Source: Candidatus Bathyarchaeota archaeon
GTDB taxonomy: Archaea > Thermoproteota > Bathyarchaeia > Bathyarchaeales > Bathycorpusculaceae
Direction of reading: 5' to 3'
Assembly: GCA_963827165.1 (NCBI GenBank)
Contig: CAWGZR010000003.1
Span: forward strand, 160,001 to 224,000
Length of the DNA: 64,000 bases
The translations under genes and the position numbers were made by a program. The notes under the pieces are model-generated. The model saw only the letters and a list, made by a program, of their open reading frames with translations, searched no databases and was not told the origin of the DNA. This document shows, in pieces, positions 11,113-56,020 of the stretch. Position 1 is the stretch's first letter, and each line of letters starts with the position of its first letter.

Positions 11113-11424
11113 GGCTGGCGAGTTGGTGTGTGGCTTTCGGACCCAAATTGATGGGTCTGAGGAAACTCCGCCCACGTGTAGAATTGCAGCTCCCCGAAGG
11201 GGCAACGCGAGAGCGTTGGCAACGGAGCAGAAACGAAACGTCCAGTTGGACTTGTCGATGACGCGTTTGTGACGCTGAGTGCGCCAACTTGGAAGCGGTG
11301 AAACGGCCGTCCTGCAAGTGGAAAGGGCAAACAGTCGCCGATGCGGAATCTACCCAAGGCGCGGGTAGCCCGATTAGCCGAATGCCACAATAACAGAAGG
11401 CGGGTTACAGCCAACACACCAGCC
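11113..11424 (+). ncRNA. rnpB: RNase P RNA
   Basis: Conserved regions GAGGAAACTCCGCCCA (P4 5'), GCAGAAACG, GTGAAACGG and AACAGAAGGCGGGTTA (P4 3'). Terminal GGCTGG/CCAGCC pairing. Ends approximate. Confidence 0.93.
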
Positions 11425-11466: not shown

Positions 11467-12130
11467 TTTTTGCCTTCCTAAACATATTATTCCTTGAGGA
11501 GTTGTGCAGACATACTGTCAAGCCTGCTCGATCAATTCACCTGCTTCCTTTGCATCTTTGGCGGTTGCATGGTGATAGTTTTCAGCGTCATCATCAACTG
11601 GAACCAAGTGAGTGTAAACGAGGGTGATGTTTATGTTCCGATGGCCAAGAAGCTCCTTGACATTAAGAATGTTTCTTAGTCATAGCGTATTCTTTGGTAG
11701 CTTTGAAGTGCCTGAGCGAGTGAAACTTGATTTGCTTTAGTCGTGGATTCTGAATTCTCTGAGCGATGGAGGCTTTTTGTCGGTCATATTTCCAGCGAAA
11801 AGCAATCAGATTACTGTGGCCGAATATGTAGTCGTTTGTTTTCGGGAGCATTAGTAATCTGGCTGTCAGTTGGCTTGAGAGTTTTTCCTGTCTTGGGTTG
11901 CCATGCTTTTCTGCTACGCATTTCAGAGTGAAGTTCTCTTCATCAAGATCTGTCCACTTGCATTGCCATAGTTCGCTTATTCTGAATCCTGTTTCTTTGA
12001 AGGCTAAAACGCATGTTCCGACTTTTTTTGTGCTGGCGGCAACTAACGCATCAACTTCTTTTTCTGTCGGGATGAAGGGCAGCGATTTCTCTTGTTCTCG
12101 TAATATGCCGGTTCCCAAGGTATTTTTGGC
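11467..12130 (-). pseudogene. Tyrosine recombinase/integrase remnant
   Basis: ETGFRISE (R), FHSLRHFKAT (HxxR), then after a frameshift near 11675 LLGHRNINITLVYTHL (H, Y). N-terminal domain missing and a further in-frame stop. Boundaries approximate. Confidence 0.85.
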
Positions 12131-40690: not shown

Positions 40691-40891
40691 ATGCCAACTG
40701 AAATTACTGATGTGGATAAGTTTGTCGCAATGAGCGCGAAAGCAAAATACTGTTCTGTGCAAAGGCTCAAAGACAATGTTAAATTGAAACTGCGCACGTC
40801 CCGCCAACTATATACTCTAAAAATAGAACCCCTCAGAGTCGATGAAATCATAAAGAAACTCCAATGCGAAATCCAAGAAAAAGAAAAATAA
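40691..40891 (+). CDS. rpl38e: 50S ribosomal protein eL38
   Basis: MPTEITDVDKF...VKLKLRTSRQLYTLK matches the eL38 signature. Confidence 0.85.
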   Translation: MPTEITDVDKFVAMSAKAKYCSVQRLKDNVKLKLRTSRQLYTLKIEPLRVDEIIKKLQCEIQEKEK

Positions 40892-41700
40892 ATCCAATCT
40901 TTCTTAACTATTAGTTTTATGTTGTTCAGTTCGTTTTGAGGGCAGACCCTGTTCTTTGCCATCCAAGCACAGAACCGTATACGAAAGCATCACCAAAACC
41001 CAGTTTTTCACCCCTCACTCGTCAAAATTCCTGCTAAAACTGATTAATTGTTCGAAAACAAACGAACCTTAAATATTCATGACAGCCTAAAGGAGAAAAG
41101 CTGGAAAAATAACAAAAAAAGAGTTCAAATAGTCTTCCGAGGAAGAAATTTGCCCCAATATTATCTATAATGAGGGGAACTTTGCCTGAAAGCATTCAAT
41201 TTCACTGTAAGAAGACAAAAATACTAATCCATAGATAGAATTCTACCCCGCTAATTGGCCGAATTTGAATTTTTCATTTGTCTGTTCCCATTTTTCACTC
41301 GAAAATCAAGCGAATGGTCATTTTTTAAATGTAAAAGTTAAAATAGGCTCAGGTTTATCTCAGAAAAATGCATGAAATTGATGATTGCTCCGTACCGCGT
41401 ATTCCATTTATGCTCTTCGTTCGACGAAGGCTGGTTCAGTTTGGCATTTGAAGAATGTAACGAAGGTATTTCAGTGAGGTTAGGATAATTCTCCAGCAAA
41501 GGTCAAATGGGTGTGGGTGCAGACTTGAATGAGCAATGGGTTGATTCTTTAAGGCGCCTGAATTGGTTGGGAAGTTAAAAAGTGAGTTTCGTTGATGCTT
41601 TTGTATACCGATCCAGGAAGGACAGAGAGATTTTTTTGGCACCTTGGATGTAATTCACTCATAGTTGATGGTTTGTTGTTAATTTGGTTGCGGGTTCGTC

Positions 41701-42408
41701 ATGAGTGTTGAGCGTAATCTGTTAATTTCTCTGTTGAAATTAACAAAAAACGGGCCTGTTTTAACTGAACTTGTTAAAAGAGAAGCTCATCTATCTGCAG
41801 CCGTTATGTCAAAATTGCTAGCAAAATTGCAAAACGAGGATTTAGTTTATTTGAAACAAGGCTGCATTGAAGTCGAAAGCGAAAACAGGCTCACACTTGC
41901 AGTTCAAGCCCTCTCGTTAGGTGCAGACGTTGAAGACATCAGTAACTTGCTTTGCTGGCAAGAATTTGAAGAAATTGCAGGCTACGTGCTGAAAAATAAC
42001 GGTTTCACAGTTTCAAACAATGTTCGTTTCAAGCAGTCGGGTCGAAGATGGGAAATAGATGTTGTCGGCTGCAAGAAACCGTTGGTTATCTGCATCGACT
42101 GCAAACATTGGCAACATGCTATTCCCCCCTCTGCTCTGAGGAAAATCGTTGATTCGCAAATTGACCGAACACAGGCAATGGCAGATTCATTGCCGAACCC
42201 TTCGCTCAAATTGGGATGCACTCAATGGAACGACGCCAAGTTTATGCCTGCAATTCTGTCACTCATGCCCAGCGCGTTCAAATTCTACTATGAAGTCCCA
42301 ATCGTTCCCATACTACAACTGCAAGACTTCTTAAATCAACTATCCGCCTATACAGAAAACCTAAAGTTTTTCACTAAAACCTTCAACAAATTAACTCATA
42401 ATCTTTAG
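41701..42408 (+). CDS. wHTH + PD-(D/E)XK restriction-endonuclease-like protein
   Basis: N-terminal HTH-like region. WQEFEE..GF...WEIDVVG...IDCKHW nuclease motifs. Confidence 0.8.
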   Translation: MSVERNLLISLLKLTKNGPVLTELVKREAHLSAAVMSKLLAKLQNEDLVYLKQGCIEVESENRLTLAVQALSLGADVEDISNLLCWQEFEEIAGYVLKNNGFTVSNNVRFKQSGRRWEIDVVGCKKPLVICIDCKHWQHAIPPSALRKIVDSQIDRTQAMADSLPNPSLKLGCTQWNDAKFMPAILSLMPSAFKFYYEVPIVPILQLQDFLNQLSAYTENLKFFTKTFNKLTHNL

Positions 42409-44262
42409 AATTGAAGATCTTGCCACTTTAAACGCAGGATAGAGACTGCAAAGCAAGATTCCGGCTAAGGCAGCGAAAAGCAACCCGGCAATCTCAAATA
42501 TCGTGAAACCCGTTACCACGGGCTGGGGCAACAAGAACAAGTAAGTTAGCATCGTGCCAAGCGAAATTCCGATTCCAAAGCTTGAAAGCAGCAAAACTGC
42601 ACTTTGCGCCCCCAAAACCAAAACAACAAACCGAGGTTTCGCACCAATAGACCTCAAAACGCCGAATTCTTGATGCTGCTCATCTATCATAAGCATCATG
42701 TAGCTGACCATGCAAAGGGCTGCAGCGGCCAAAGTAAAGAAGGGCATAATCATTATTGTTTCCCAACTTGACCCTAGAAAACTTGTGTCTTTTTCCACGA
42801 CGCTGTTTATTTGGAAAACGTTCAAGTTTGGATCTATATTCTTTAGTAAGCTCTTGATTTGAACGATCGCGACTGACTGGTCAGCAGAGCTTTTAAGCGT
42901 TACCAAGAGAAGATTCGGGCTCAAAATTCCAGATGCATTTTCAAGAGTTTGGATAGGCACATATGTGACAAAGCCATTATTTATTGGGTCAACACAGACA
43001 CCGACGATGTTGTATTGGGTGTTTTTGAATAACATGTCTTCAACTAGCGGGTTTGCCTGAGATATTCCAAGACTTGAATCGGGCATGTAGATAGTTTGGG
43101 AAACTGAATCGCCAATTACAGCCTGATATTGATCTCTAGTGTTCAAGAATCTGCCCTGCACATTCCAGCTACTAGAGAGTTCCGCGGGGTTGACACCTAC
43201 CACCATGGCGGTTGTTGTCCTGTTACCACCTACATAACCAACCGAGCCGGTATCGCCGTTAAAACTGAAGTTTGCAACCTCCTGAATCTGCCCGTCTAAA
43301 ACCAAACGAGTATCAACCAAATCCACGCTTGACAAAGAGTTTAGTTGGGTTACGACTGAGTTGGAAATAGCCAGATTTGGGCTGGAATAGTCAAAACCGC
43401 TTGTATTAAGGGCGCCTGAAAACTTCGATAGAAGCTGTTCGTATTGGGTGCCCATGCCGGGTGAGGCAATAACTATGGAGTTTTTGCCCACGCTATTTTG
43501 AACCCAACTTGTAGTTGTGTCGCTTGCGATAACTCCGCCCCCGACACATACTGTAAGCAGGATGAAAACTATGGACAGCAAAATCAGCAGTCTAAAAGTT
43601 GCTGATTGACGACGAAGCAGGCTTCTGCTGGCTATGCTCCAGGTTAATCCAGATTTTGACAGCGGCTTATGTTTTCCCGTTTTTGCTAAGCCATGGTAGG
43701 TTACGGGCGAAAGAGCCTTAATCGGTGGCATTCTTGAGGCTTTAAGAAGGGGCCCAATACCGAAAACCAATGCCAAAACTAAGAAGACGACAAAAACTAT
43801 AGGTCCCGACCAAAGATTAGGCACCCTGTATTCCGAAAAAACATAGTTTGAGATGCCATAATCCATTATAAAACCGAGAATTAAGCCTAAGCCACATCCC
43901 ACCACGGTCGTCGCTAAAAGTTCCGTCATAAAATATCCGGCAACAAGGTTGTTTGGGCATCCAGCCGCCTTTATCAAACCGAAATCCCGCGTTCTTTGAG
44001 CCATCATTGAGAAAGCAATGAAGGATGTGAGGATTGCGCCTACGGCGAAGATGAGAATGCCAATGAATGAAATAAACTGGGAGAAAACCACGTTTATTCC
44101 CACCGTAAAAACGTTGGTGGCTGAGGTTAAACTGCTAAGTTGGCTACTGAATAGTAGCAGAAACATGGTGGAAGCAACACTAAATGCTAAAGTTGCTACT
44201 GTTAAGCTTGTTTGAAGTCTCCTTCGAAGCAAATCGTTTATTGGAAAACCTGCGCTACTCAT
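42391..44262 (-). CDS. FtsX/MacB-like ABC permease
   Basis: Two FtsX motifs (RTRDFGLIKAAG, EFGVLRSIGA) and a periplasmic domain. Confidence 0.88.
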   Translation of the reverse strand: MSSAGFPINDLLRRRLQTSLTVATLAFSVASTMFLLLFSSQLSSLTSATNVFTVGINVVFSQFISFIGILIFAVGAILTSFIAFSMMAQRTRDFGLIKAAGCPNNLVAGYFMTELLATTVVGCGLGLILGFIMDYGISNYVFSEYRVPNLWSGPIVFVVFLVLALVFGIGPLLKASRMPPIKALSPVTYHGLAKTGKHKPLSKSGLTWSIASRSLLRRQSATFRLLILLSIVFILLTVCVGGGVIASDTTTSWVQNSVGKNSIVIASPGMGTQYEQLLSKFSGALNTSGFDYSSPNLAISNSVVTQLNSLSSVDLVDTRLVLDGQIQEVANFSFNGDTGSVGYVGGNRTTTAMVVGVNPAELSSSWNVQGRFLNTRDQYQAVIGDSVSQTIYMPDSSLGISQANPLVEDMLFKNTQYNIVGVCVDPINNGFVTYVPIQTLENASGILSPNLLLVTLKSSADQSVAIVQIKSLLKNIDPNLNVFQINSVVEKDTSFLGSSWETIMIMPFFTLAAAALCMVSYMMLMIDEQHQEFGVLRSIGAKPRFVVLVLGAQSAVLLLSSFGIGISLGTMLTYLFLLPQPVVTGFTIFEIAGLLFAALAGILLCSLYPAFKVARSSILKIMS

Positions 44263-44947
44263 TTGTACTCGCCAAGACGCCTTCTTCAAGGCATAAAACT
44301 TGATCCGCCAACTGCTTTATTTGCGCGTCATGAGTCGCGACAATAACTGTTTTTCCTTTTTCCTTCAGAAGTTGAAGGACCTGCACAATTTTCTGGGCGT
44401 TTTTATCATCCAAATTACCTGTCGGCTCATCTGCGAGGATAAGCTGCGGATCATTAGCTAGGGCTCTTGCAAATGCGACACGTTGCTGCTCGCCTCCGCT
44501 CAATTGAGAAGGAAAATGATTAGCCCTGTTCAGCAAACCCACTGATTCAAGCAAATCATTTATGCGTTTTTCAATGTCTTCCTGAGGTTTAGCCGTCCAT
44601 TCCATGGGAAACGCAATGTTCTCAGCAACGGTTAAGGTGGAAACTAAATTGTAGGCTTGAAAAACGAAGCCGACGCTATTGCAGCGGTAATCTGACAATT
44701 GATCTTCATTTTGGTCTGTTAAGTCTTGACCATCGACAAAGATTTTTCCTGCGGTCGGCCTATCAATTCCGCCGATAATATTGAGAAGAGTGGTTTTTCC
44801 CGAACCTGAAGCCCCGCTCAAAACCACAAACCGTGCTTTATGAATAGAAAAGGTGATATCTTTTAAAACTTCAAGTTTCTCGTTACTTACATCATAGGCT
44901 TTTCCCAGCGTCTCTGCATGAACGAAAAACTCGTCTTGGGTTTGCAT
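44255..44947 (-). CDS. ABC ATP-binding protein (LolD/MacB type)
   Basis: [28 protein letters not shown]. Confidence 0.95.
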
Positions 44948-45023
44948 TCCTCTTGGCCTCTCCTAGCGAAAAAAGAGTTACGCGTTACTATAATATAGGT
45001 TGAGGTACAGTTGCTTTCTTTCT

Positions 45024-45473
45024 TCAGGGGTAGGTTGTGTCCAGATTTAGGTTTCCTCTATCGCGTTTGAGTATTCTTATTTTTTCAGGCAGTTTATTTT
45101 TCTCCCAATCTGACCATTCGACTTCTTTGAAAAGCCACCGCTTTCCCAAGTGCGCCGCCACCACGGCGTGTTTATGGGCGTTGTCTGCGGGGATTAATTC
45201 GTTTAGGAATCTGAAAAGTTTGTCGACTTGTTGTTTGGGGAAATATGCGTAGTATGTGGCGTTTTTGACTTCAAAAGCGTACATGTGAAGGTCGCGTCGG
45301 GCCATGACGTCAGGGAGCGGGTTTAGGCTTGGGTTACTTACTGGAACCCGAACGGCGTTGTAACCTTTTTTCTGCAAAAGCTTAACCAGTACAGTTTCAC
45401 TGTAGAAGCCTCTCTTGCGCCAACGCCTAAGTCTAACCCTGTCTATCTCTTTACTCAATCGATCGGACTCCAC
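45024..45473 (-). CDS. Hjc-like Holliday junction resolvase
   Basis: RGFYSE..L.KKGY.AVRVPVS....PDVMA....AFEVK, the Hjc-type PD-(D/E)XK signature. Confidence 0.78.
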   Translation of the reverse strand: MESDRLSKEIDRVRLRRWRKRGFYSETVLVKLLQKKGYNAVRVPVSNPSLNPLPDVMARRDLHMYAFEVKNATYYAYFPKQQVDKLFRFLNELIPADNAHKHAVVAAHLGKRWLFKEVEWSDWEKNKLPEKIRILKRDRGNLNLDTTYP

Positions 45474-48414
45474 TCGTCAACTGCTTATCAACGCTCAAAG
45501 AATAAAAATTGTTGCCTTTAGAGTTGGGCAAAACACGTTGGGGGATGCTTTTGTACACCTTGTACTGAATGGTGGCACGCTGGCGAAGTCTGGTGACGAA
45601 AACAAAAGCAAGTAATACGTATAACACCATTGTAACCAATCATGCAATCGTATCCATCCACACAGCAAAAATATTGCCAGTTTAGACTACATTAAGCAGT
45701 TCAAAGTTAGCGCTTGACCCAAAAACACACAGAACTCAACATCAACCGCACACAAAAAATTGCAGCCAAAACTCTGGTGAATATGAAGATCTACAGGTCC
45801 TTTTCAGAAACTCGGAAAAAACACAGTCTCACTTGCGAAAAGCTGCAAACAGAAAACAAAAAACGACAGCCTATTTCGGAGTTTTTTTCCGCATTTCTCG
45901 GTCATAGCGCCTTACAGTTCCAGGATCGCACACAATCTTAGCGGGTGAGTCCGAAGATAAAACTAGGAACTCCTCTCGGTTTAAGATTATTGGAAAGCAT
46001 TTTGGTCAAAACAGGTTCCTGAAGGGAAAACCTTCGTCTCCAATTTTTTTTGTCAAAAAACCGCAAAGTTTCGTTAACCACGAAAAAAACCACGTAAAAC
46101 CTCGAAGACCAACCGAAAAAACCGAGTTTGCCTTCGCATGGAGATTTTCGGGGGTACTTATATGAGGCCACGATATTCTCCATGCCACGTCTCTATGGGA
46201 ACACTTGAAAAGGCTGAAACAGGGGTTTTTTAGAATTTTAAGGTCAAACTAAGCCCCAAGATTCTCGTTTCCATACCAAAAAAATGGCAGCTTTTTTAAA
46301 TCAATTGTTACGAAGAAAAACAAGCCCCAATCAACAGTTTTAGAGTAAAATACCCCCTAATAATAGTCATTTTTACGAAACAAGGCGAACGGAACCACGT
46401 TAATTGGATCCCTGAAAAGACAACTCAAAACATTCAGCAAAAATTTTGAAATCAATCGTTGCCCCAGATTTCCACAGAATCTTTTGCTTGACCGTTTGAT
46501 AACCCCGGAAATTTGGTGCCACTATCATACCATATTTTTTTCATCGGAAGTTCGTTTGATTTTGTTTTGACCGCGAGAAATTATTCTTCTTTTTTTTGAG
46601 GGAAAGCAATTAGAAAATGCTGGCGCGAACATAGCAACTGTAAATCCAAAAAGCACAATTAGCTGTTTTTAAAGCTCACCACAGAAAGAAAAAATAAGCA
46701 CAAAAATTAGGCCACAAAGACACCGCAACTAAGGTAAACATCACGAAGGTCACTAGGCTCTCACGACCGTCAACCGCGCAAAAAATTGCCATCCACGCTC
46801 AACCAACACCTGAACGTCCGTTTCTAAAACCCAAATGACTGCTGCTTCTTCCCTTGCGATGTCTTCCTTAAAGTTTTTGAATAACGATTTTATCAAGCAC
46901 GGCTCCAGAGTCCTTAGCCTACGTGAAGGAATTTTAATAACTCACCCAAACCGACTGCTCTGCAGTCAACCAATTACAGGGCAGACTTCAATTATTTTGC
47001 CGAAGTCGTTTTCTTGAGCTTTCAAATCTATGCGAATCAACCACGCTTGCTCCAGAAACAAACTCGTGATTCCAATGCATTCATTTTCTTAAAAACTGTT
47101 TTTCGGTTGCTTCAAATTCCCTGAGATGTAAAAGATTCACGACCCATTCCTACTTGAACCATCACTATGATGCAAACGCCGGTTTTTGTTTACTGAAAAA
47201 GTGCAAATTGATCCATCATTTTTTCTCAACAAGCACCCTGCATAAGATTAGCTGGCGTAAGCAGCGCTATATTCGAGCGATTGCTTGATATGAAACTTCA
47301 CATACGTGAACTCAGTGACATAAGCAATACGCTTACGATTTACCATCACGGGGCACAACCAGCAAGATGAATAACAAACCATCGAAAACAACTTCAATTC
47401 GCGTAGGCGAACAAAACCGGCAGGTTGCACTTTTGTCGGGGAGTAAAGTGCTTACAGATGTTTAAGAAAATCACACTGACTGAGCAACCCCCTCAGTTTA
47501 CTTTGCCACAGCACCTATTCGATATCAAATTCTTTGCAGCTTAGGAAAAGCAGAAATCAGTTTCAAATACAACAGGCAACTGTCAAGCCGCGTCAACGCA
47601 CTATCAATAATCGGGAAGCCTCGTGTCATTAAAAGCCTGTACACTGCAAACAGGCGTTCATCTGTTTTTTTAGATAATTTCAGTGCCCTGCACTTGCCAC
47701 AGGAAAGATAACCGGGCTGTTTGCCAAAATAACTTTTGACAATGCGGATGTACTATCTTTTGGTCTTTGAAATAAGGAAGAGTTTTCCTCTGTTTTTTGT
47801 CGCACCAGGCATATGGGAAAATCGTGTTATCGCCGTCCCAGCCCGTATACAAAAGCATCAACGGCACACAGTTTATTTCAGGAGCCATTAACTAATTTTC
47901 AGCCGACTTGGCTAAACCAGTTTTCGAAGCCAGCCGAACCTTAAATATACATGCAACGCGTTAAGCTGAAACTGCAAAAATAATTCGATCAATCGCTGAT
48001 GCCAGCCTTTTCAACCCAAAAAACGGTAGCTTTGAAGAGCAAGAGGTTCAAAGGCAAGGAAAATCAGATAACTTAGGCTGAAGTGGAGGCTATTTGAAAC
48101 ATTTTTAGGATGATCTCTAACTTTTCATCCAATCTAATGGGAAAACGTGGGAATTTTCAGGGGCGAAAAAACAGCTAAATGGTTATTTTTTACAAATAAA
48201 TGTTAAAACAATATCAGTCATGGCTCGGAATAGCGCTTATTCTGCCGAATTATAGCAGCTTTCTTGAATTCTTTAAGCTTCGGATGCCGAAAACTCGAAA
48301 CTTTCTAGCCTATCAATCAAAAAATCAGCCAGCGTAAGGCGCCTGCGACCCCCAGAAAAAAGCAGGCATTTCGAAATATTTTTCAGCGCTAACTGACGTT
48401 ACAAGAATGAGAGC

Positions 48415-48832
48415 ATGTCAAACTTTAAGGTCGCTAACTACAGTTTCAGCTTTGCGACTAAGGGCGAAATAGATTTCGTAGATTTGTCCCAGAAGGTTCA
48501 GGAAGAGGTCTCTGCGTCAGGCGTAAGAAACGGAATTGTCCACGTGTTTGCGCCCCATGCAACAGGCATACTGGTTTTGACAGAAAATGATGACTCCCTG
48601 CTTAGAGGACATAAGGATGTTGCTTGAAGAGCTCGCACCAAAAAGATCAACTTATCAGCATCCTTCGAACGCCCACTCTCACCTGCGATCGATGCTTCTC
48701 CCGCCTGACAAGACTTTGCCAATAGTTAACGGGAAAGTCACTTTTGGAACTTGGCAGTCGTTGCTCTTCGTGGAAACTGATGTCTACCCGCGAAAACGAA
48801 CCATAATCATCCAAGTCCTGGGCGAACAGTGA
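48415..48832 (+). CDS. YjbQ/UPF0047 family protein, frameshifted near 48597
   Basis: PHATG..TENDD in one frame, NAHSHLRS...GTWQSLLFVE in the next. Confidence 0.85.
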
Positions 48833-49265
48833 AGTTGGAAGAAACAGGCACGTACTTATTCTTACGGCGCAATTGAGTAAATTTGGTTTTTTCGGTTGCT
48901 GTTACCGCAACATGTAAATCTGGTCCATTGTTTTCGCGCGTTTAATGACAATTTAAGGTGACCAAGTCTGCGTATTTAACTATTTATTGTAAAAATTGTC
49001 CATTCGATGTCATTTCGTGACAACCTTAGGAGGCAAAAACCTCGGATTAGATATGCAAATCGAATTTCAAGGCGCACAAGGCCAAAATTATGCCCACCTA
49101 GACGGCTCTAGACCCCATTTCAGAAACGGTCAAGCTCTTTTCAGGCTTAAATAAACCAAGGTTTCACCTATTTCAAGAGAAAACCGCCCAGCCATTGGCA
49201 GATTCAGCGCCTTTGCCTGAATTCGGTGGGATGATTATTTAAGGTTCGGCGCTTTTCGAAGAAGG

Positions 49266-49994
49266 TTAACCTTTTCGCTCAGTTGGGAGCCTCTTGGATG
49301 ATCCGCGTGGGCGCATCCGAGATTTCTTCCTATCCGTTGCTTTTTCATTGGGTTTGTCTTCAAAGGTGTCAGCTTCAACTTCACCCATCGGCAAGGTGTC
49401 AACAGCGTCAGGGAAATCAGCGGTTGTCGCCTGCACAGCTCCGCATTTAAGCATAGATTCTACTGCTTTATCGACATCTTCTGGCTGGGCGTCTATGCCC
49501 CGCGTGGCATCCATGAGAACAATGGTTTCGTATCCATGTTTCCGTGCGTCAAGAACCGAGTGTAGAACGCAGTAGTCAGTAGCCAATCCCCCCACGAAAA
49601 GCCGCCGGATGCTGCGCTCCTTCAACTCTTTAGCAAATGTGGTTTGGTCAAAAACTGAGTAGCTTTCCCGCATAGGGTCGGTAGCTTTAAAGACAACCAC
49701 CGCATCTTTTGGCAGTTTAAACTTGGGGCTGAACTCGGCGCCTTTAGTATCTTGGACACAATGCGGAGGCCAAGAACCACCCTGCTGCTTAAACGAGCAA
49801 TGGTTCCGAGGATGCCAATCACGGGAAGCAAAAATAGGGGCTTTAGCGTCCGCGAAAATTCTTGCGAACTCGTTTAAAAGAGGAATAATTTCGTCGCCGC
49901 CGGGAACAGGAAGCGCTCCTCCAGTTAGGAAATCATTTTGGATGTCAGTTATCAAAAGTGCATCGGAACTTGTCAAATTATAGGTTTTGTTCAA
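49266..49994 (-). CDS. pncA: Nicotinamidase/pyrazinamidase
   Basis: DIQNDF, DWHP, WPPHCVQ, GLATDYCV. Confidence 0.92.
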   Translation of the reverse strand: MNKTYNLTSSDALLITDIQNDFLTGGALPVPGGDEIIPLLNEFARIFADAKAPIFASRDWHPRNHCSFKQQGGSWPPHCVQDTKGAEFSPKFKLPKDAVVVFKATDPMRESYSVFDQTTFAKELKERSIRRLFVGGLATDYCVLHSVLDARKHGYETIVLMDATRGIDAQPEDVDKAVESMLKCGAVQATTADFPDAVDTLPMGEVEADTFEDKPNEKATDRKKSRMRPRGSSKRLPTERKG

Positions 49995-50222
49995 ACAGAT
50001 ACCTCATAAAATAGTCTTTAAATTTATGTTGTTTAAAATTCAAATTTACTAGCGCGAAACTATTGGATAAACCTTTTGTGGGTAACGCACGTTTGAAAAA
50101 TTGAAAAATGCAGGCGATAGCACAAAGACAACGGGGTTTTACTGTGTTTTGGTGATGCTTTTGTATACCGCTTAGCAACGCTTATCTTTTAAGGGACGCT
50201 CAATAAAATACGAGACGTCAAA

Positions 50223-51758
50223 ATGCTTGCCAAAAACAAACCAATCACAAACAGGGAAATGCGAGCCCTAGAAACTAACGCGGAATATTACGGCATGAGC
50301 CTACTTCAACTAATGGAAAACGCTGGAAGCCGCGTTGCCGAAGAAGTGGCTTCTCGCTTCCCCGAAGGCATGAAGGTTGCTGTTTTCTGTGGTTTAGGTG
50401 GAAACGGAGGCGACGGCTTTGTCGCCGCTAGGCATCTTTTGAACCTTGGCTTCAATGTTTCCGTGGTTGTTGTGGGCAAATACAGAGACATCGGTCACGA
50501 TGCGGCGCGTGCTAACTTTGCGATTCTCCAATCAATACAGAACAAGATTGCCTTGGTTGAAGTGACGGACAGCTCAGCAATACCAAAATTGACCATTGAA
50601 ATAGTTATCGATGCTTTGTTGGGAACGGGCACAAAAGGAAAAATCAAGCCGCCAGTAAGCCAAGTGGTAAACTGCATCAACACCTCAGATACTTTCAAAA
50701 TCGCAGTTGACGTTCCAACAGGAATAGATTCCGACACTGGCGATGTTCTAGGCACAGCGGTTAAAGCTGATTTAACCATAACTTTTCACAGATCAAAAGT
50801 CGGGCTGGAGAAAGCAACGGAGTACGTTGGTGAACTTGTAGTAAAGGACATTGGATTGCCTATAGAAATAGAGCGTTATGCGGGTCCAGGCGACGTTTAC
50901 CTTGCAAGGGTTCCGAGGAGGCCAACAGCGCACAAAGGCGATTTCGGACGACTCCTAGTCATCGGCGGAAGCGAAATTTATTCGGGAGCACCGACTTTGG
51001 TTTCGCTGGGTGCCATGCGAACGGGAGTTGACCTCGTTTATCTCGCTGCGCCCTCGAAAACAGCGAACGTGATTTCTTCTATGTCCCCTGACTTGATTAC
51101 GATTAAGCTTGAAGGCACCAACCTGAATCCAGCCAACATCGAAACGGTCAAACCGTACCTTGCGATGGTTGATGCAGTAGCATTAGGTCCGGGTTTAAGC
51201 TTGAATGCTGAAACCGTCGATTTCGTAAAGCTTTGCGTTGAAGAGGTTGAACGCGTGGGGAAACCTTTGCTTTTGGACGCCGATGGACTTAAAGCCTTTG
51301 CCAAGTTCAAAAGACCCCTCAGGACGCCGCTTGTTCTTACGCCTCACGCTGGCGAGTACTCGCTACTTACGGGTGAAACGCTGCCTGAAAACATGGAGGA
51401 ACGAGCCGTGGCAATACAGAAAACTGCGAAAAAACTCGATGCTGTAGTTCTTGTAAAGGGCAAAGTTGACTGCATCTGTAGTCCTGAACGCATCAAGCTG
51501 AATTTCTCTGGGAACCCCGGCATGACAGTGGGCGGCACAGGTGATGTTCTTAGCGGCATCGTCAGCGGCTTAATGGCTCAAGGAGTTGACCCGTTTGAAG
51601 CAGCAACGGCTGGAGCTTTCGTCAACGGCGCAGCAGGCGATTTCGCCGAGGCCGAGCTTGGCTTTCACATGGTTGCATCAGACATTATTGACTGGATCCC
51701 AAACGTCTTCGAGGAACCAATGAACCACTTAAAGGTACGCAACCAACTTGGAAAATAA
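50223..51758 (+). CDS. nnr: Bifunctional NAD(P)H-hydrate epimerase/dehydratase
   Basis: LMENAG, GNGGDG, DVPTG, HKGDFG, LTPHAGE, GGTGDVLSG. Confidence 0.95.
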   Translation: MLAKNKPITNREMRALETNAEYYGMSLLQLMENAGSRVAEEVASRFPEGMKVAVFCGLGGNGGDGFVAARHLLNLGFNVSVVVVGKYRDIGHDAARANFAILQSIQNKIALVEVTDSSAIPKLTIEIVIDALLGTGTKGKIKPPVSQVVNCINTSDTFKIAVDVPTGIDSDTGDVLGTAVKADLTITFHRSKVGLEKATEYVGELVVKDIGLPIEIERYAGPGDVYLARVPRRPTAHKGDFGRLLVIGGSEIYSGAPTLVSLGAMRTGVDLVYLAAPSKTANVISSMSPDLITIKLEGTNLNPANIETVKPYLAMVDAVALGPGLSLNAETVDFVKLCVEEVERVGKPLLLDADGLKAFAKFKRPLRTPLVLTPHAGEYSLLTGETLPENMEERAVAIQKTAKKLDAVVLVKGKVDCICSPERIKLNFSGNPGMTVGGTGDVLSGIVSGLMAQGVDPFEAATAGAFVNGAAGDFAEAELGFHMVASDIIDWIPNVFEEPMNHLKVRNQLGK

Positions 51759-52302
51759 CTCCGAAACGCCTAAACCAGTTTTGCCCGTGAGAATAACCAT
51801 TTATCACGCTGCCCAAGATGATCCTAAAAAGAACACTGCTCTTAGACTTAAACGGCGAGGATTCGCAAGGATAGTTACCAAAGTAAAGTTCTTGCCCAAA
51901 CGGGCTATTGTGCTTAACCCTTTTGGCGAAATCGCGTTTTCACCGGCTGATAGGGAAAGGATTTCGCAGTTTGGGTTAGCAGCGTTAGATTGCAGTTGGG
52001 AACATGCCCAGAAAGTTATGGGAAAACACGTCAAAGGTACCAGCCGATGCTTGCCGATTCTAATCGCAGGTAACCCAGTTAACTACGGCAAATTGACAAA
52101 GCTTACAACAGCTGAAGCCATCGCCGCCGCCCTATTCATAGCAGGTTTCAAAGAAGAGTCTGAGACTGTTTTGTCGGTTTTTAGTTGGGGTCACACGTTT
52201 TTTGAGCTAAACAGTATGTTGCTTGATAACTATGTATTGGCGAAGGATAGCGGCGAAATCGTAGAGATGCAAACAAGGCTTCTTGGAAAAAAACGTGAGT
52301 AA
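51748..52302 (+). CDS. tsr3: 16S rRNA aminocarboxypropyltransferase (DUF367)
   Basis: QDDPKKNT, LDCSW, RCLP.LIAGNPVNYG, WGHTFFELN. Confidence 0.93.
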   Translation: MENNSETPKPVLPVRITIYHAAQDDPKKNTALRLKRRGFARIVTKVKFLPKRAIVLNPFGEIAFSPADRERISQFGLAALDCSWEHAQKVMGKHVKGTSRCLPILIAGNPVNYGKLTKLTTAEAIAAALFIAGFKEESETVLSVFSWGHTFFELNSMLLDNYVLAKDSGEIVEMQTRLLGKKRE

Positions 52303-52450
52303 GAACTGTGTTTGGGTGATGCTTTCGTATACCGTCGGCGTTTAATTCTGAATATCTTGCTTGCACCTTGCGTGACTCAAATTTTTTTCCACAAAATTTT
52401 TTGTTTGTGTTTTGAGTTGGTTTTCTTGTTTGGGGCTTGGATAGGTTGTA

Positions 52451-52530
52451 ACTGTGAGCTAAAATAAGCTATCTTAAGCTAAAATACGCTATAATGAGCT
52501 GTTTTAAGCCAAAATACGCTATAAAAGGCT
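52451..52530. repeat. Eight-unit array with exact 10-bp period, units ending in (A/C/G)GC(T/C)
   Basis: actgtgagct|aaaataagct|atcttaagct|aaaatacgct|ataatgagct|gttttaagcc|aaaatacgct|ataaaaggct. Confidence 0.85.
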
Positions 52531-52807
52531 AAAAAAGACAATGTAATCGCCTGGTGTAAGAATTGGGCGTTTGTAGGGGTGGAAAATGAGAGTTTTCGTC
52601 TCAAGGTCATAAAATGTCTTAATAACACCAGATGCTTGATATAGACTATCCATTAACGATATTTTGACCGCATTTGAAGCAGAACATATTCTCATACGGG
52701 TTTACTGAGCAACGACAGCAAGTGTTTATTTTTTATGCACTTACCAAAATCAGTGCATAAGATTTTGGTAAAGTCTTATTAGATCAATAGAATTTCTCAT
52801 ATAAACA

Positions 52808-55411: not shown

Positions 55412-56020
55412 TTGTTCTTCGCATCAGTTTTTATGATTTCTCTTTCAGGCGTTCTAATGCCTGGACCATTATTCGCCGCAACTATCCAGCAGGCAACCAA
55501 ACGCAAATCTGCAGGAGCATTAATCGCGGTTGGACACGCAATAGTAGAGGTCCCACTGATGTTCCTTATCTATTTCATACTAACCCAAGTCGCCATTCCC
55601 ACATTTGTCCAGCTTGCCGTGGGATTGATCGGCGGGCTCCTAATGGTTTTAATGGGGATTCAAACATTCAGAACCAGAAATAAAATCCAAGAAAACCAAG
55701 CCTCACAGAAAAAAGATTCGCTTTTTGCTGGAATCTACACCACTGCAGTTAACGCTGGCTTTATTCTTTGGTGGTTGACAATTGGAACCACGCTTATTCT
55801 AAATGCTCAATTGTTTGGGCTAATCGGCGTCTCAATTTTCGCAGGCATTCATTGGCTATGCGATCTTTCATGGTACACGGTAACTGCCTTAGTGATCTTC
55901 GGATCCCAACGTTTCTGGACGGCACGCGCTCGTGCAGGTATAACTCTTTTTTGTGCGGCAGTCTTCATCGGCTTTGGAGTTTACTTCATGAGTTCAGCGA
56001 TTTCGTCTTTATTGGCATAG
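55412..56020 (+). CDS. LysE family translocator
   Basis: SGVLMPGP, GHAIVE, LWWLTIG, HWLCD. Confidence 0.9.
   Translation: MFFASVFMISLSGVLMPGPLFAATIQQATKRKSAGALIAVGHAIVEVPLMFLIYFILTQVAIPTFVQLAVGLIGGLLMVLMGIQTFRTRNKIQENQASQKKDSLFAGIYTTAVNAGFILWWLTIGTTLILNAQLFGLIGVSIFAGIHWLCDLSWYTVTALVIFGSQRFWTARARAGITLFCAAVFIGFGVYFMSSAISSLLA

Follow-up and report, generated by a model that had tools for sequence, protein, structure and literature searches.

What is a 30-bp asymmetric sequence, repeated six times in the non-coding DNA of one archaeal locus, doing there? The question is raised by a stretch of 64,000 nucleotides from a Bathyarchaeota genome of 3.13 Mb in 14 contigs (C3:160001-224000; hereafter the window), in which an earlier note had pointed out the repeat and had read it as a set of binding sites marking a chromosomal landmark, or as the ends of an element. 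We call the motif M. Our preferred answer, held tentatively and with somewhat less than even confidence, is that M is a polar, protein-bound landmark of the replication terminus and, in addition, a recombination hotspot. The binding of a protein to M, and any function of M, are what we infer from its sequence, position and orientation. To our knowledge, only some bacteria handle the terminus in a site-specific way (Tus-Ter, RTP-Ter, dif and matS), and the M cluster may be the first archaeal landmark dedicated to the end of replication. In Sulfolobus, the one archaeon studied directly, forks were found to end by colliding at random (PMC3020120).

Copies, conservation and spread of the motif

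All six copies (m1 to m6 in the table below) were recovered at the places and on the strands where they had been reported. With the 15-nt core GATGCTTTYGTAYAC and at most one mismatch, the window holds 6 matches against 0.04 expected, and none of 100 shuffles reaches 6. A position weight matrix (PWM) built from the copies scores these six at 30-48 and the next best place in the window at 11, in agreement with the remark that no further full copy occurs there. Across the whole source genome the matrix finds 7 copies (30-48, against 19 or less everywhere else). The seventh, at C5:533610 (+), is the sole copy outside the window, and six of the seven fall within 11.4 kb. On the strength of the window and whole-genome scores, M is rare, clustered and real.

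The motif is about 29 bp long, so that the proposed extent of 30 nt was about right. A logo of 392 copies from 79 loci, chosen by the 15-mer core with at most 2 mismatches, reads aaA.TgtGTTTkGkt GATGCTTTTGTATAC, with flanks at about 0 bits. Because the copies were chosen by their core, conservation of the core is partly circular; the roughly 13 conserved positions upstream of it (aaA.TgtGTTTkGkt) are independent evidence. Conservation stops abruptly past GTATAC, which gives M a sharp 3' edge. M itself shows no dyad: of 11 positions, 3-5 pair as complements, where the random mean is 5.0. GTATAC is palindromic, and the core contains the TATA-like TTTTGTATA. The idea that GTATAC is a restriction site was rejected, as the hexamer is not avoided (324 observed, 327 expected).

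Every copy lies outside supported genes, as the earlier note had held. Some are overlapped by short open reading frames (ORFs); those that were scanned match no Pfam family, and the flanks of M are not conserved. The variety of contexts was also rightly described: m2 and m5 stand upstream of genes, m1 and m6 past stop codons, and m3 and m4 bound a gene desert of 2.3 kb (45561-47842). In several relatives, m6 lies just upstream of the homologue of the membrane protein gene at 55412-56020. Along the window the copies are ordered - + + (-) - + +, where (-) is a relic, m3'.

The same arrangement recurs in relatives. All 24 same-genus genomes (24/24) carry M, clustered alike. For a wider comparison, 79 related loci were collected around homologues of W, the gene downstream of m2, and copies of M were counted with the core at 2 or fewer mismatches. 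Most loci hold 5-6 copies, and their common map is X40> L38e> M< gap M> W> FtsX< ABC< Hjc< M> blkA (M<) blkB M< UPF0047> pncA< M> nnr> tsr3> M>. In particular, an M(+) lies 63-127 bp ahead of the W start in 70 of 76 loci (median 106 bp, measured from the start of the core), no more than 250 bp from Hjc in 70 of 70, and within 250 bp ahead of nnr in 59 of 63. An M(-) is found at most 900 bp ahead (left) of UPF0047 in 52 of 62 loci and at most 400 bp past (right of) L38e in 38 of 58. Of the 79 loci, 24 have two convergent copies separated by 150-700 bp.

The exact 15-mer was then screened across 151 genomes of the class, with the reversed pattern as a control (matches in 3/151 genomes). It occurs in 21 of 22 genomes of family f1, 6 of 6 of f7, 5 of 6 of f11 and the single genome of f2 (1/1), in none of f6 (0/4) or f10 (0/2), and in 1 of 109 genomes outside the order. 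The range of M is a single order, made up of uncultured archaea from soil and peat. In several small-genome lineages (G025, G030, G034, G107, G148 and G157), one convergent M pair, 240-590 bp apart, is the whole system.

The scan of the genome and its relatives, which the earlier note had proposed as a check, shows clustering at a single locus and not dispersal. Neither an evenly dispersed regulon site nor a repeat flanking transposases, the two patterns that would have spoken against a landmark, was seen. The suggestion that the copies are ends of an unknown element is not supported either, if a mobile element such as an insertion sequence (IS) or a miniature inverted-repeat transposable element (MITE) is meant: no transposase family is found among the ORFs of the window, 6 of the 7 copies belong to one locus, and the position is fixed by synteny in the 79 loci and across the order. 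Viral contigs tell the same story. The exact 16-mer is held by 25 of them, once each; 24 were examined and none has the M tail (0/24), the sole partial look-alike lying inside a phage baseplate gene.

Position opposite the origin, and polarity

Where on the chromosome does the cluster lie? The orc1/cdc6 copies of the source genome are on contigs C5 and C10, and none is in the window. Upstream of cdc6-1, three canonical origin recognition boxes (ORBs; TCCAG..GAAAC...GGGGTG) lie around a 120-bp stretch that is richer in AT than any other in the genome (87% AT), in the manner of a DNA unwinding element (DUE); the ORB pattern occurs in the source genome only here, at C5:483.79-484.24 kb. An identical ORB/DUE layout stands beside cdc6-1 in six single-contig genomes of 2.15-3.05 Mb (G003, G014, G040, G041, G042 and G043, of which G040 comes from another family). 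Next to cdc6-1, a convergent ORF of 546 aa resembles, judged by eye from its sequence, what we take to be the small subunit of DNA polymerase D. The source genome's cdc6-1 is itself read as two overlapping frames (319 aa and 165 aa; G000 C5:482383-483718), which may be a single-base assembly error.

Measured from the ORB/DUE origin, the centre of the M cluster is 0.490, 0.484, 0.499, 0.495, 0.499 and 0.478 genome lengths away in the six single-contig genomes (6/6; the G003 distance was worked out by hand from mapped positions). That is, the cluster centre sits 2-65 kb off the exact antipode of the origin. The second cdc6 gene varies in position, at 0.235-0.338 genome lengths from the origin.

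The distal copies of M, of which there are 1-4 per genome, add a polarity to this position. Counting 2 in G003, 2 in G014, 4 in G041, 3 in G043, 4 in G040 and 1 in the source genome, all 16 of 16 are (-) left and (+) right of the origin and hence point away from it, a tally that overstates the case because distal sites are partly homologous between genomes, so that by our estimate perhaps 7-8 are independent. For example, an M site beside gdh, near MCM and other replication genes, is present in both the source genome and G003. A 17th copy, in G014 about 4 kb from the antipode, was excluded as ambiguous. Near the distal copy of the source genome, at 170 bp, lies the gene of a 96-aa protein (L189 2813-3103; G000 C5:533812-534102) that matches the Sso10a chromatin-protein family below the family cut-off; the neighbour in G003 is a different one, and the proximity is probably a coincidence.

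Could the cluster instead be a second replication origin, with M as the element bound by an initiator (a second Orc1/Cdc6 paralogue, or W)? The divergent pairs m1/m2 and m4/m5 would then flank unwinding regions, and an origin at the antipode would halve replication time. M is indeed asymmetric and of ORB-like size, and the divergent inverted pair m1/m2 flanks about 600 bp, much as ORBs flank a DUE. If both poles were origins, all M arrows would point away from the nearest one; in the source genome, cumulative GC skew along C3 reaches its lowest point near the cluster; and the second cdc6 gene has no oriC1-type ORBs nearby. However, the cluster contains no ORB and no AT-rich unwinding element (at most 74% AT over 120 bp, against 87% at oriC1 of the source genome and 75-88% at oriC1 across 7 genomes). 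No initiator gene lies in the window, and the second cdc6 gene is 0.5-0.8 Mb distant, its fractional position differing between genomes. Moreover, gene orientation in G003 converges on the cluster and does not diverge from it, and the minimal form in other families is likewise convergent, not divergent. A second origin is thus highly improbable in our judgement. With ORB, DUE and cdc6 all absent from the cluster (and cdc6 from the window), the origin part of the landmark proposal does not fit; nor does its centromere part, since M lacks the dyad symmetry of a palindromic parS and clusters opposite the origin. What is supported is the landmark itself, whose antipodal position in 6 of 6 genomes and distal polarity fit an organiser of the terminus.

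The terminus landmark that we favour would work as follows. A sequence-specific DNA-binding protein, which may be W, would recognise M and mark the pole of the chromosome opposite the origin; bound to M, it would affect fork progression or the organisation of the terminus in a polar fashion. The ancestral unit would consist of two convergent copies (M> ~250 bp <M) placed opposite oriC, and the family of the source genome would have expanded it to 6-7 sites in the order - + + (-) - + +. The small recombinases found in family f7 (see below) would exploit M or would have been co-opted to it.

A stronger version makes M the Ter site of the first archaeal fork trap. Here the outliers would be permissive to forks coming from the origin, and the terminator would be non-homologous to Tus and RTP, possibly W acting as a Fob1-like barrier that provokes recombination. 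A fork would pass M when travelling along its arrow, as the origin-proximal copies require, the convergent pair at the antipode would be a minimal trap and the outlying copies would be its back-stops. The inner sites of the cluster fit this polarity (m2+, m3+ | m3'-, m4-). We nonetheless think this version doubtful. Incoming forks would meet the outermost sites (m1-, m5+ and m6+) in the blocking orientation, only 4 of the 6-7 sites fit, and G040 has one misfit among its 7 copies (6/7 conform). For these reasons a strict fork trap is not supported; a leaky barrier or a terminus-organising role is possible.

These misfits, and the homology between distal copies, also count against the terminus landmark as such, and they are not alone. 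We place the terminus by geometry alone. Although the share of long ORFs on the plus strand in G003 falls from 59% left of the cluster to 41.5% right of it, G040 shows no switch in gene orientation or in GC skew. GC skew, computed on the source contigs and on a 50% sample of G003, is weak and contradictory, with a cumulative minimum near the cluster on C3 and a maximum near it in G003. Of 120 tetramer skews, none separates the assumed replichores (maximum |t| 2.8). A second cdc6 gene exists, so there may be more than one origin. As to a terminator, there is no Tus (PF05472 gives no match), and the match to the RTP model (PF02334, 27-28 bits) proved to be a PadR-type protein, which scores 71.9 bits for PadR. 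W occurs once per genome throughout the class (133 of 151 genomes), far beyond the range of M, and in 4 other families (20 genomes) no shared repeated 12-mer lies near it; its candidacy is therefore weak, and W as the exclusive partner of M is rejected. Lastly, the small tyrosine recombinase-like genes in or beside the M pair of family f7 point to recombination.

The surroundings of the cluster offer a separate observation. In G003, G014, G040 and G041, integrase-family matches gather about 10-70 kb from it: in G003 they lie at 896-943 kb (M cluster at 963-971 kb), and in G040 at 1.218 and 1.223 Mb (M cluster at 1.203-1.208 Mb). The region around the cluster may be a preferred landing zone for integrated elements.

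Recombination at M and the genes around it

The whole m1-m5 segment is inverted in three loci (that of G014, L040, and loci L124 and L099). Comparison of L124 with L100, its collinear sister, places both junctions within the 30-bp M, where the homology of the flanks changes over. The two loci are sisters with support 100 in a quick tree of W, in whose 53 rows (G014 not among them) 50 loci are collinear, 2 are inverted and 1 has pncA in the gap, so that at least two arrangement changes are needed. Other rearrangements bounded by M copies were observed in L108, where blkB is inverted and nnr-tsr3 relocated, and in L121, where pncA has moved into the m1-m2 gap.

In addition, the sister family f7 carries small ORFs at its M pairs. 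Three genomes (G040, G172 and G118) show the layout M> [231-248 aa ORF] <M, and two others (G030 and G148) have a 197-aa ORF directly beside M> 270 bp <M. Four of these five ORFs match PF00589 (Phage_integrase) weakly (E 3.6e-4 to 4e-3, all under the cut-off), and an R...HxxR...W...Y pattern is visible in them. The 197-aa protein has 214 relatives, and the 120 listed include proteins with PF00589 or with the name 'integrase' or 'XerD' in their source. A distal M of G040 abuts the end of a 192-aa integrase-like frame. In G030, an inverted partial copy of the recombinase gene (residues 116-196, 68% identity; L048 4836-5081) was also noticed between the gene and the M pair. On this comparison of arrangements and protein families, M is apparently recombinogenic over evolutionary time and associated with a recombinase in one family.

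Is M, then, simply the target of a tyrosine recombinase of the sfx/fimS kind? Such a site would have one arm and the crossover core conserved, the crossover would fall at GTATAC, and the segments bounded by M would be invertible; in the family of the source genome, either the gene of the enzyme would no longer be at the locus or a different recombinase would work in trans. The f7 ORFs, the junctions of the m1-m5 inversion inside M, the repeated rearrangements and the sharp edge of conservation at a palindromic hexamer all suit this proposal, which we regard as possible if somewhat unlikely. What it has to accommodate is the strong constraint on M where no such enzyme is found. No relative of the f7 recombinases was detected in the source genome (tblastn with E up to 1 gave one 35-residue chance match), nor in the 79 f1 loci or next to M in those loci of f11, f2 and f1 that were examined; the source genome has 7 PF00589 matches elsewhere, none in the M cluster. 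As far as these searches go, the source genome's family appears to keep M without an f7-type recombinase. In 4 DNA runs the contigs pass through m1-m5 in unchanged order and show no inversion joint at M, although contigs can hide rare variants, and gene order is constant in 50 of the 53 rows. Active recombination at 6-7 sites of mixed orientation would, moreover, delete housekeeping genes (Hjc, tsr3 and nnr), and distal polarity with respect to oriC is left unexplained. Homologous recombination between 30-bp repeats could produce inversions as well, and the recombinase assignment itself is a distant one: the best PDB profile match is XerD at E 0.008, and the predicted model is poor (pLDDT 44).

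The other candidate partner is W. Its structure is predicted with confidence (pLDDT 91) as a winged helix joined to a PD-(D/E)XK domain, with E88, E90, E118, D120, D133 and K135 invariant. Fold matches are weak and fall on nuclease domains (Can2/Card1, AF1548, FokI and the R2 endonuclease), and no PDB sequence match was found. It is by its position within the order that W may be a binder of M. Its place relative to cdc6 in closed genomes of other orders was uninformative. In the first codons of W, at window 41719-41746, there is a dif-shaped 11-6-11 inverted repeat with one mismatch that is conserved in relatives; it is probably a by-product of the conserved protein sequence.

The spacing of m2 and W brings up another explanation, namely that M is the operator or upstream element of a local regulator serving W, the Hjc-ABC-FtsX operon, UPF0047, pncA and nnr-tsr3. 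The promoter-like boxes B1, B2 and blkB would be its partners, and the antipodal position would be inherited synteny without meaning. In keeping with this, all copies are intergenic and most stand 50-150 bp from a gene start, the m2-W distance is fixed, the core holds a TATA-like stretch, the boxes form a promoter-like vocabulary private to the locus, and a conserved GTTGATG half-site is present in the W promoter region. On the other hand, m1, m6 and the C5 copy point at the 3' ends of genes, distance and orientation to gene starts are not fixed except at m2, and the neighbouring genes share no common pathway. Distal polarity and a constant antipodal position in genomes of 2.15-3.05 Mb would also be left unexplained. 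An ordinary regulon operator, which would be dispersed, is rejected, and a local one seems to us quite improbable.

The remaining features of the locus are collected in the table.

Table. Features of the M cluster and its neighbourhood (window positions; gene content of the window assigned by Pfam)
Feature	Position	Strand	Remark
L38e gene	40691-40891	+	Pfam
m1	40975-41004	-	84 bp past L38e stop; points toward L38e
m1-m2 gap	41005-41580		576 bp
B1 box, TTCGAA-N6-CGAACCTTAAATAT.CATG	41051-41081	+	promoter-like
B2 box, CTCGAAAAT..CGAATGGTCATTTTTTAAATGTAAAAGTTAAAATA	41300-41345	+	conserved in 51 aligned gaps; T-run, TATA-like
m2	41581-41610	+	91 bp ahead of W start
W	41701-42408	+	235 aa; winged-helix + PD-(D/E)XK nuclease-like (Mrr_cat/NERD)
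FtsX permease, ABC ATPase, Hjc	42391-45473	-	Pfam
m3	45531-45560	+	58 bp from Hjc start, divergent; weakest of six (PWM 30)
blkA	45613-45735		moderately conserved interior of M> ~250 bp <M unit; M-like half sites CTGGTGAC
m3' relic	45790-45828	-	degenerate partner copy, by alignment; not detected by PWM
blkB core	46130-46187		near-invariant in 68 loci; unique in genome; TATA-like centre
m4	47843-47872	-	points into gene desert
Second B1...B2 unit	47923-48213	+	B1 47923-47953, B2 48170-48213
UPF0047 gene	48415-48832	+	Pfam
Third B1...B2 unit	48975-49263	-	B1 49263-49231, B2 49004-48975
pncA-like isochorismatase	49266-49994	-	Pfam
m5	50141-50170	+	52 bp ahead of nnr (YjeF); inversion partner of m1
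nnr + tsr3	50223-52302	+	Pfam
m6	52305-52334	+	3 bp past tsr3 stop

The Hjc gene of the cluster is the only Hjc match of the source genome, and the relic m3' is intact in 24 of the 79 relatives' loci. UPF0047 reads as two overlapping frames (48415-48627 and 48587-48832). In two independent runs the contigs are one base shorter at 48602, which would restore a single frame; the frameshift is therefore probably an assembly error and not a pseudogene. The 13-nt core of B1, CGAACCTTAAATA, has just 3 copies genome-wide, all inside the M cluster, and B2 is an AT-rich box about 230 bp downstream of each B1. Together with blkB, these boxes look like promoter candidates. No compensatory changes or covariation were seen in the alignments of blkB or of the M> ~250 bp <M unit. 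Rfam gave no match in 40800-52800 even at E up to 1, and over the whole window only the archaeal RNase P RNA (11118-11419) and 2 tRNAs.

Three further observations concern DNA outside the cluster. Between m6 and the gene of a 434-aa secreted protein, about eight tandem 10-bp units (GCTAAAATAA-like) occupy window 52458-52537. The segment 52340-55400 is an extra of about 3 kb relative to several relatives, in which the homologue of 55412-56020 directly follows tsr3 and m6; it encodes a methyltransferase and the 434-aa signal-peptide protein, which has no family. Far from M, at 11663-12118, a truncated tyrosine-recombinase ORF of 151 aa stops just past its HSLRH box. The RNase P RNA gene lies about 250 bp away, and the ORF resembles what is left of an element that had integrated next to an RNA gene.

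Comparison with known systems

If the terminus landmark is real, archaeal termination or terminus organisation can be sequence-directed, by a system that arose independently of the bacterial ones. Even as a recombination site M would be unusual, as a tyrosine-recombinase site family fixed at an archaeal terminus. In either case there is a practical handle in the 30-mer, the candidate proteins (W and the f7 recombinases) and the closed genomes. A narrow literature search, which did not include the motif sequence itself, found no description of M. A term search of the preprint on the first closed Bathy-6 genome (10.1101/2024.09.16.613360) returned no mention of replication, cdc6, terminus or repeat.

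By the tests applied, M is not an ORB, a dif site, a parS, a clustered regularly interspaced short palindromic repeat (CRISPR) or an IS end. ORBs come close in form, as both are asymmetric repeats of similar length that occur as inverted pairs in non-coding DNA. However, the ORBs of these genomes differ from M in sequence and sit only beside cdc6-1, around the 87%-AT element.

Bacteria have other families of protein-binding sites that are confined to the terminus region, as M, with its putative binder, would be. The matS sites of MatP and the XerD sites at which SMC is unloaded are palindromic or dif-like, are spread over hundreds of kilobases and are not polar, whereas M is asymmetric, polar and packed into about 10 kb. 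The dif site is a single 28-bp site with two 11-bp inverted arms and a 6-bp spacer. M as dif is rejected, given its lack of a dyad and its 7 copies in the source genome; per genome, M has 6-13 copies, in contrast with single-site dif. A screen for the 11-6-11 form gave 2 conserved candidates, both unconvincing, one being the repeat in the coding start of W and the other inconsistently placed in relatives. There is still a likeness to dif/XerA of archaea and to the XerS-difSL and XerH-difH modules of bacteria, in that they and M belong to the terminus region. As described in PMC2958812 and PMC5357621, xerS-difSL modules hold the recombinase gene next to its site; the f7 recombinase gene adjoins its presumed site likewise.

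The sites of shufflons and invertons (sfx with Rci, and fimS with FimB/FimE) are asymmetric, with one conserved side ending in a short core, and they occur in both orientations and bound segments. M resembles them in that its inverted copies bound segments, recombinase-like genes of about 200-250 aa stand by it in f7, and evolutionary inversion breakpoints fall in it. It differs in that the source genome has no f7-type recombinase, either among the ORFs of the window or genome-wide, in a near-fixed housekeeping order (50/53 rows), and in a terminus position and origin-related polarity that have no counterpart in those systems.

Closest to the terminus landmark are the bacterial Ter sites, which let forks from the origin pass and face forks running the wrong way. 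We know of no fork trap in archaea. M shares no sequence or protein homology with Ter, Tus or RTP, and its outermost sites are misoriented for a strict trap. Yet Ter with Tus in E. coli or with RTP in B. subtilis and M have in common their rarity, their asymmetry, a length of about 23-30 bp and a concentration opposite the origin, with outlying copies oriented so that forks from the origin meet all of them alike. At the terminus of B. subtilis, TerI and TerII form a closely spaced inverted pair, to which the M pairs can be likened. According to PMC10331603, tus and rtp each have a ter site in their own promoter; m2, in a similar way, stands at a fixed distance upstream of W, the gene of a putative DNA-binding protein.

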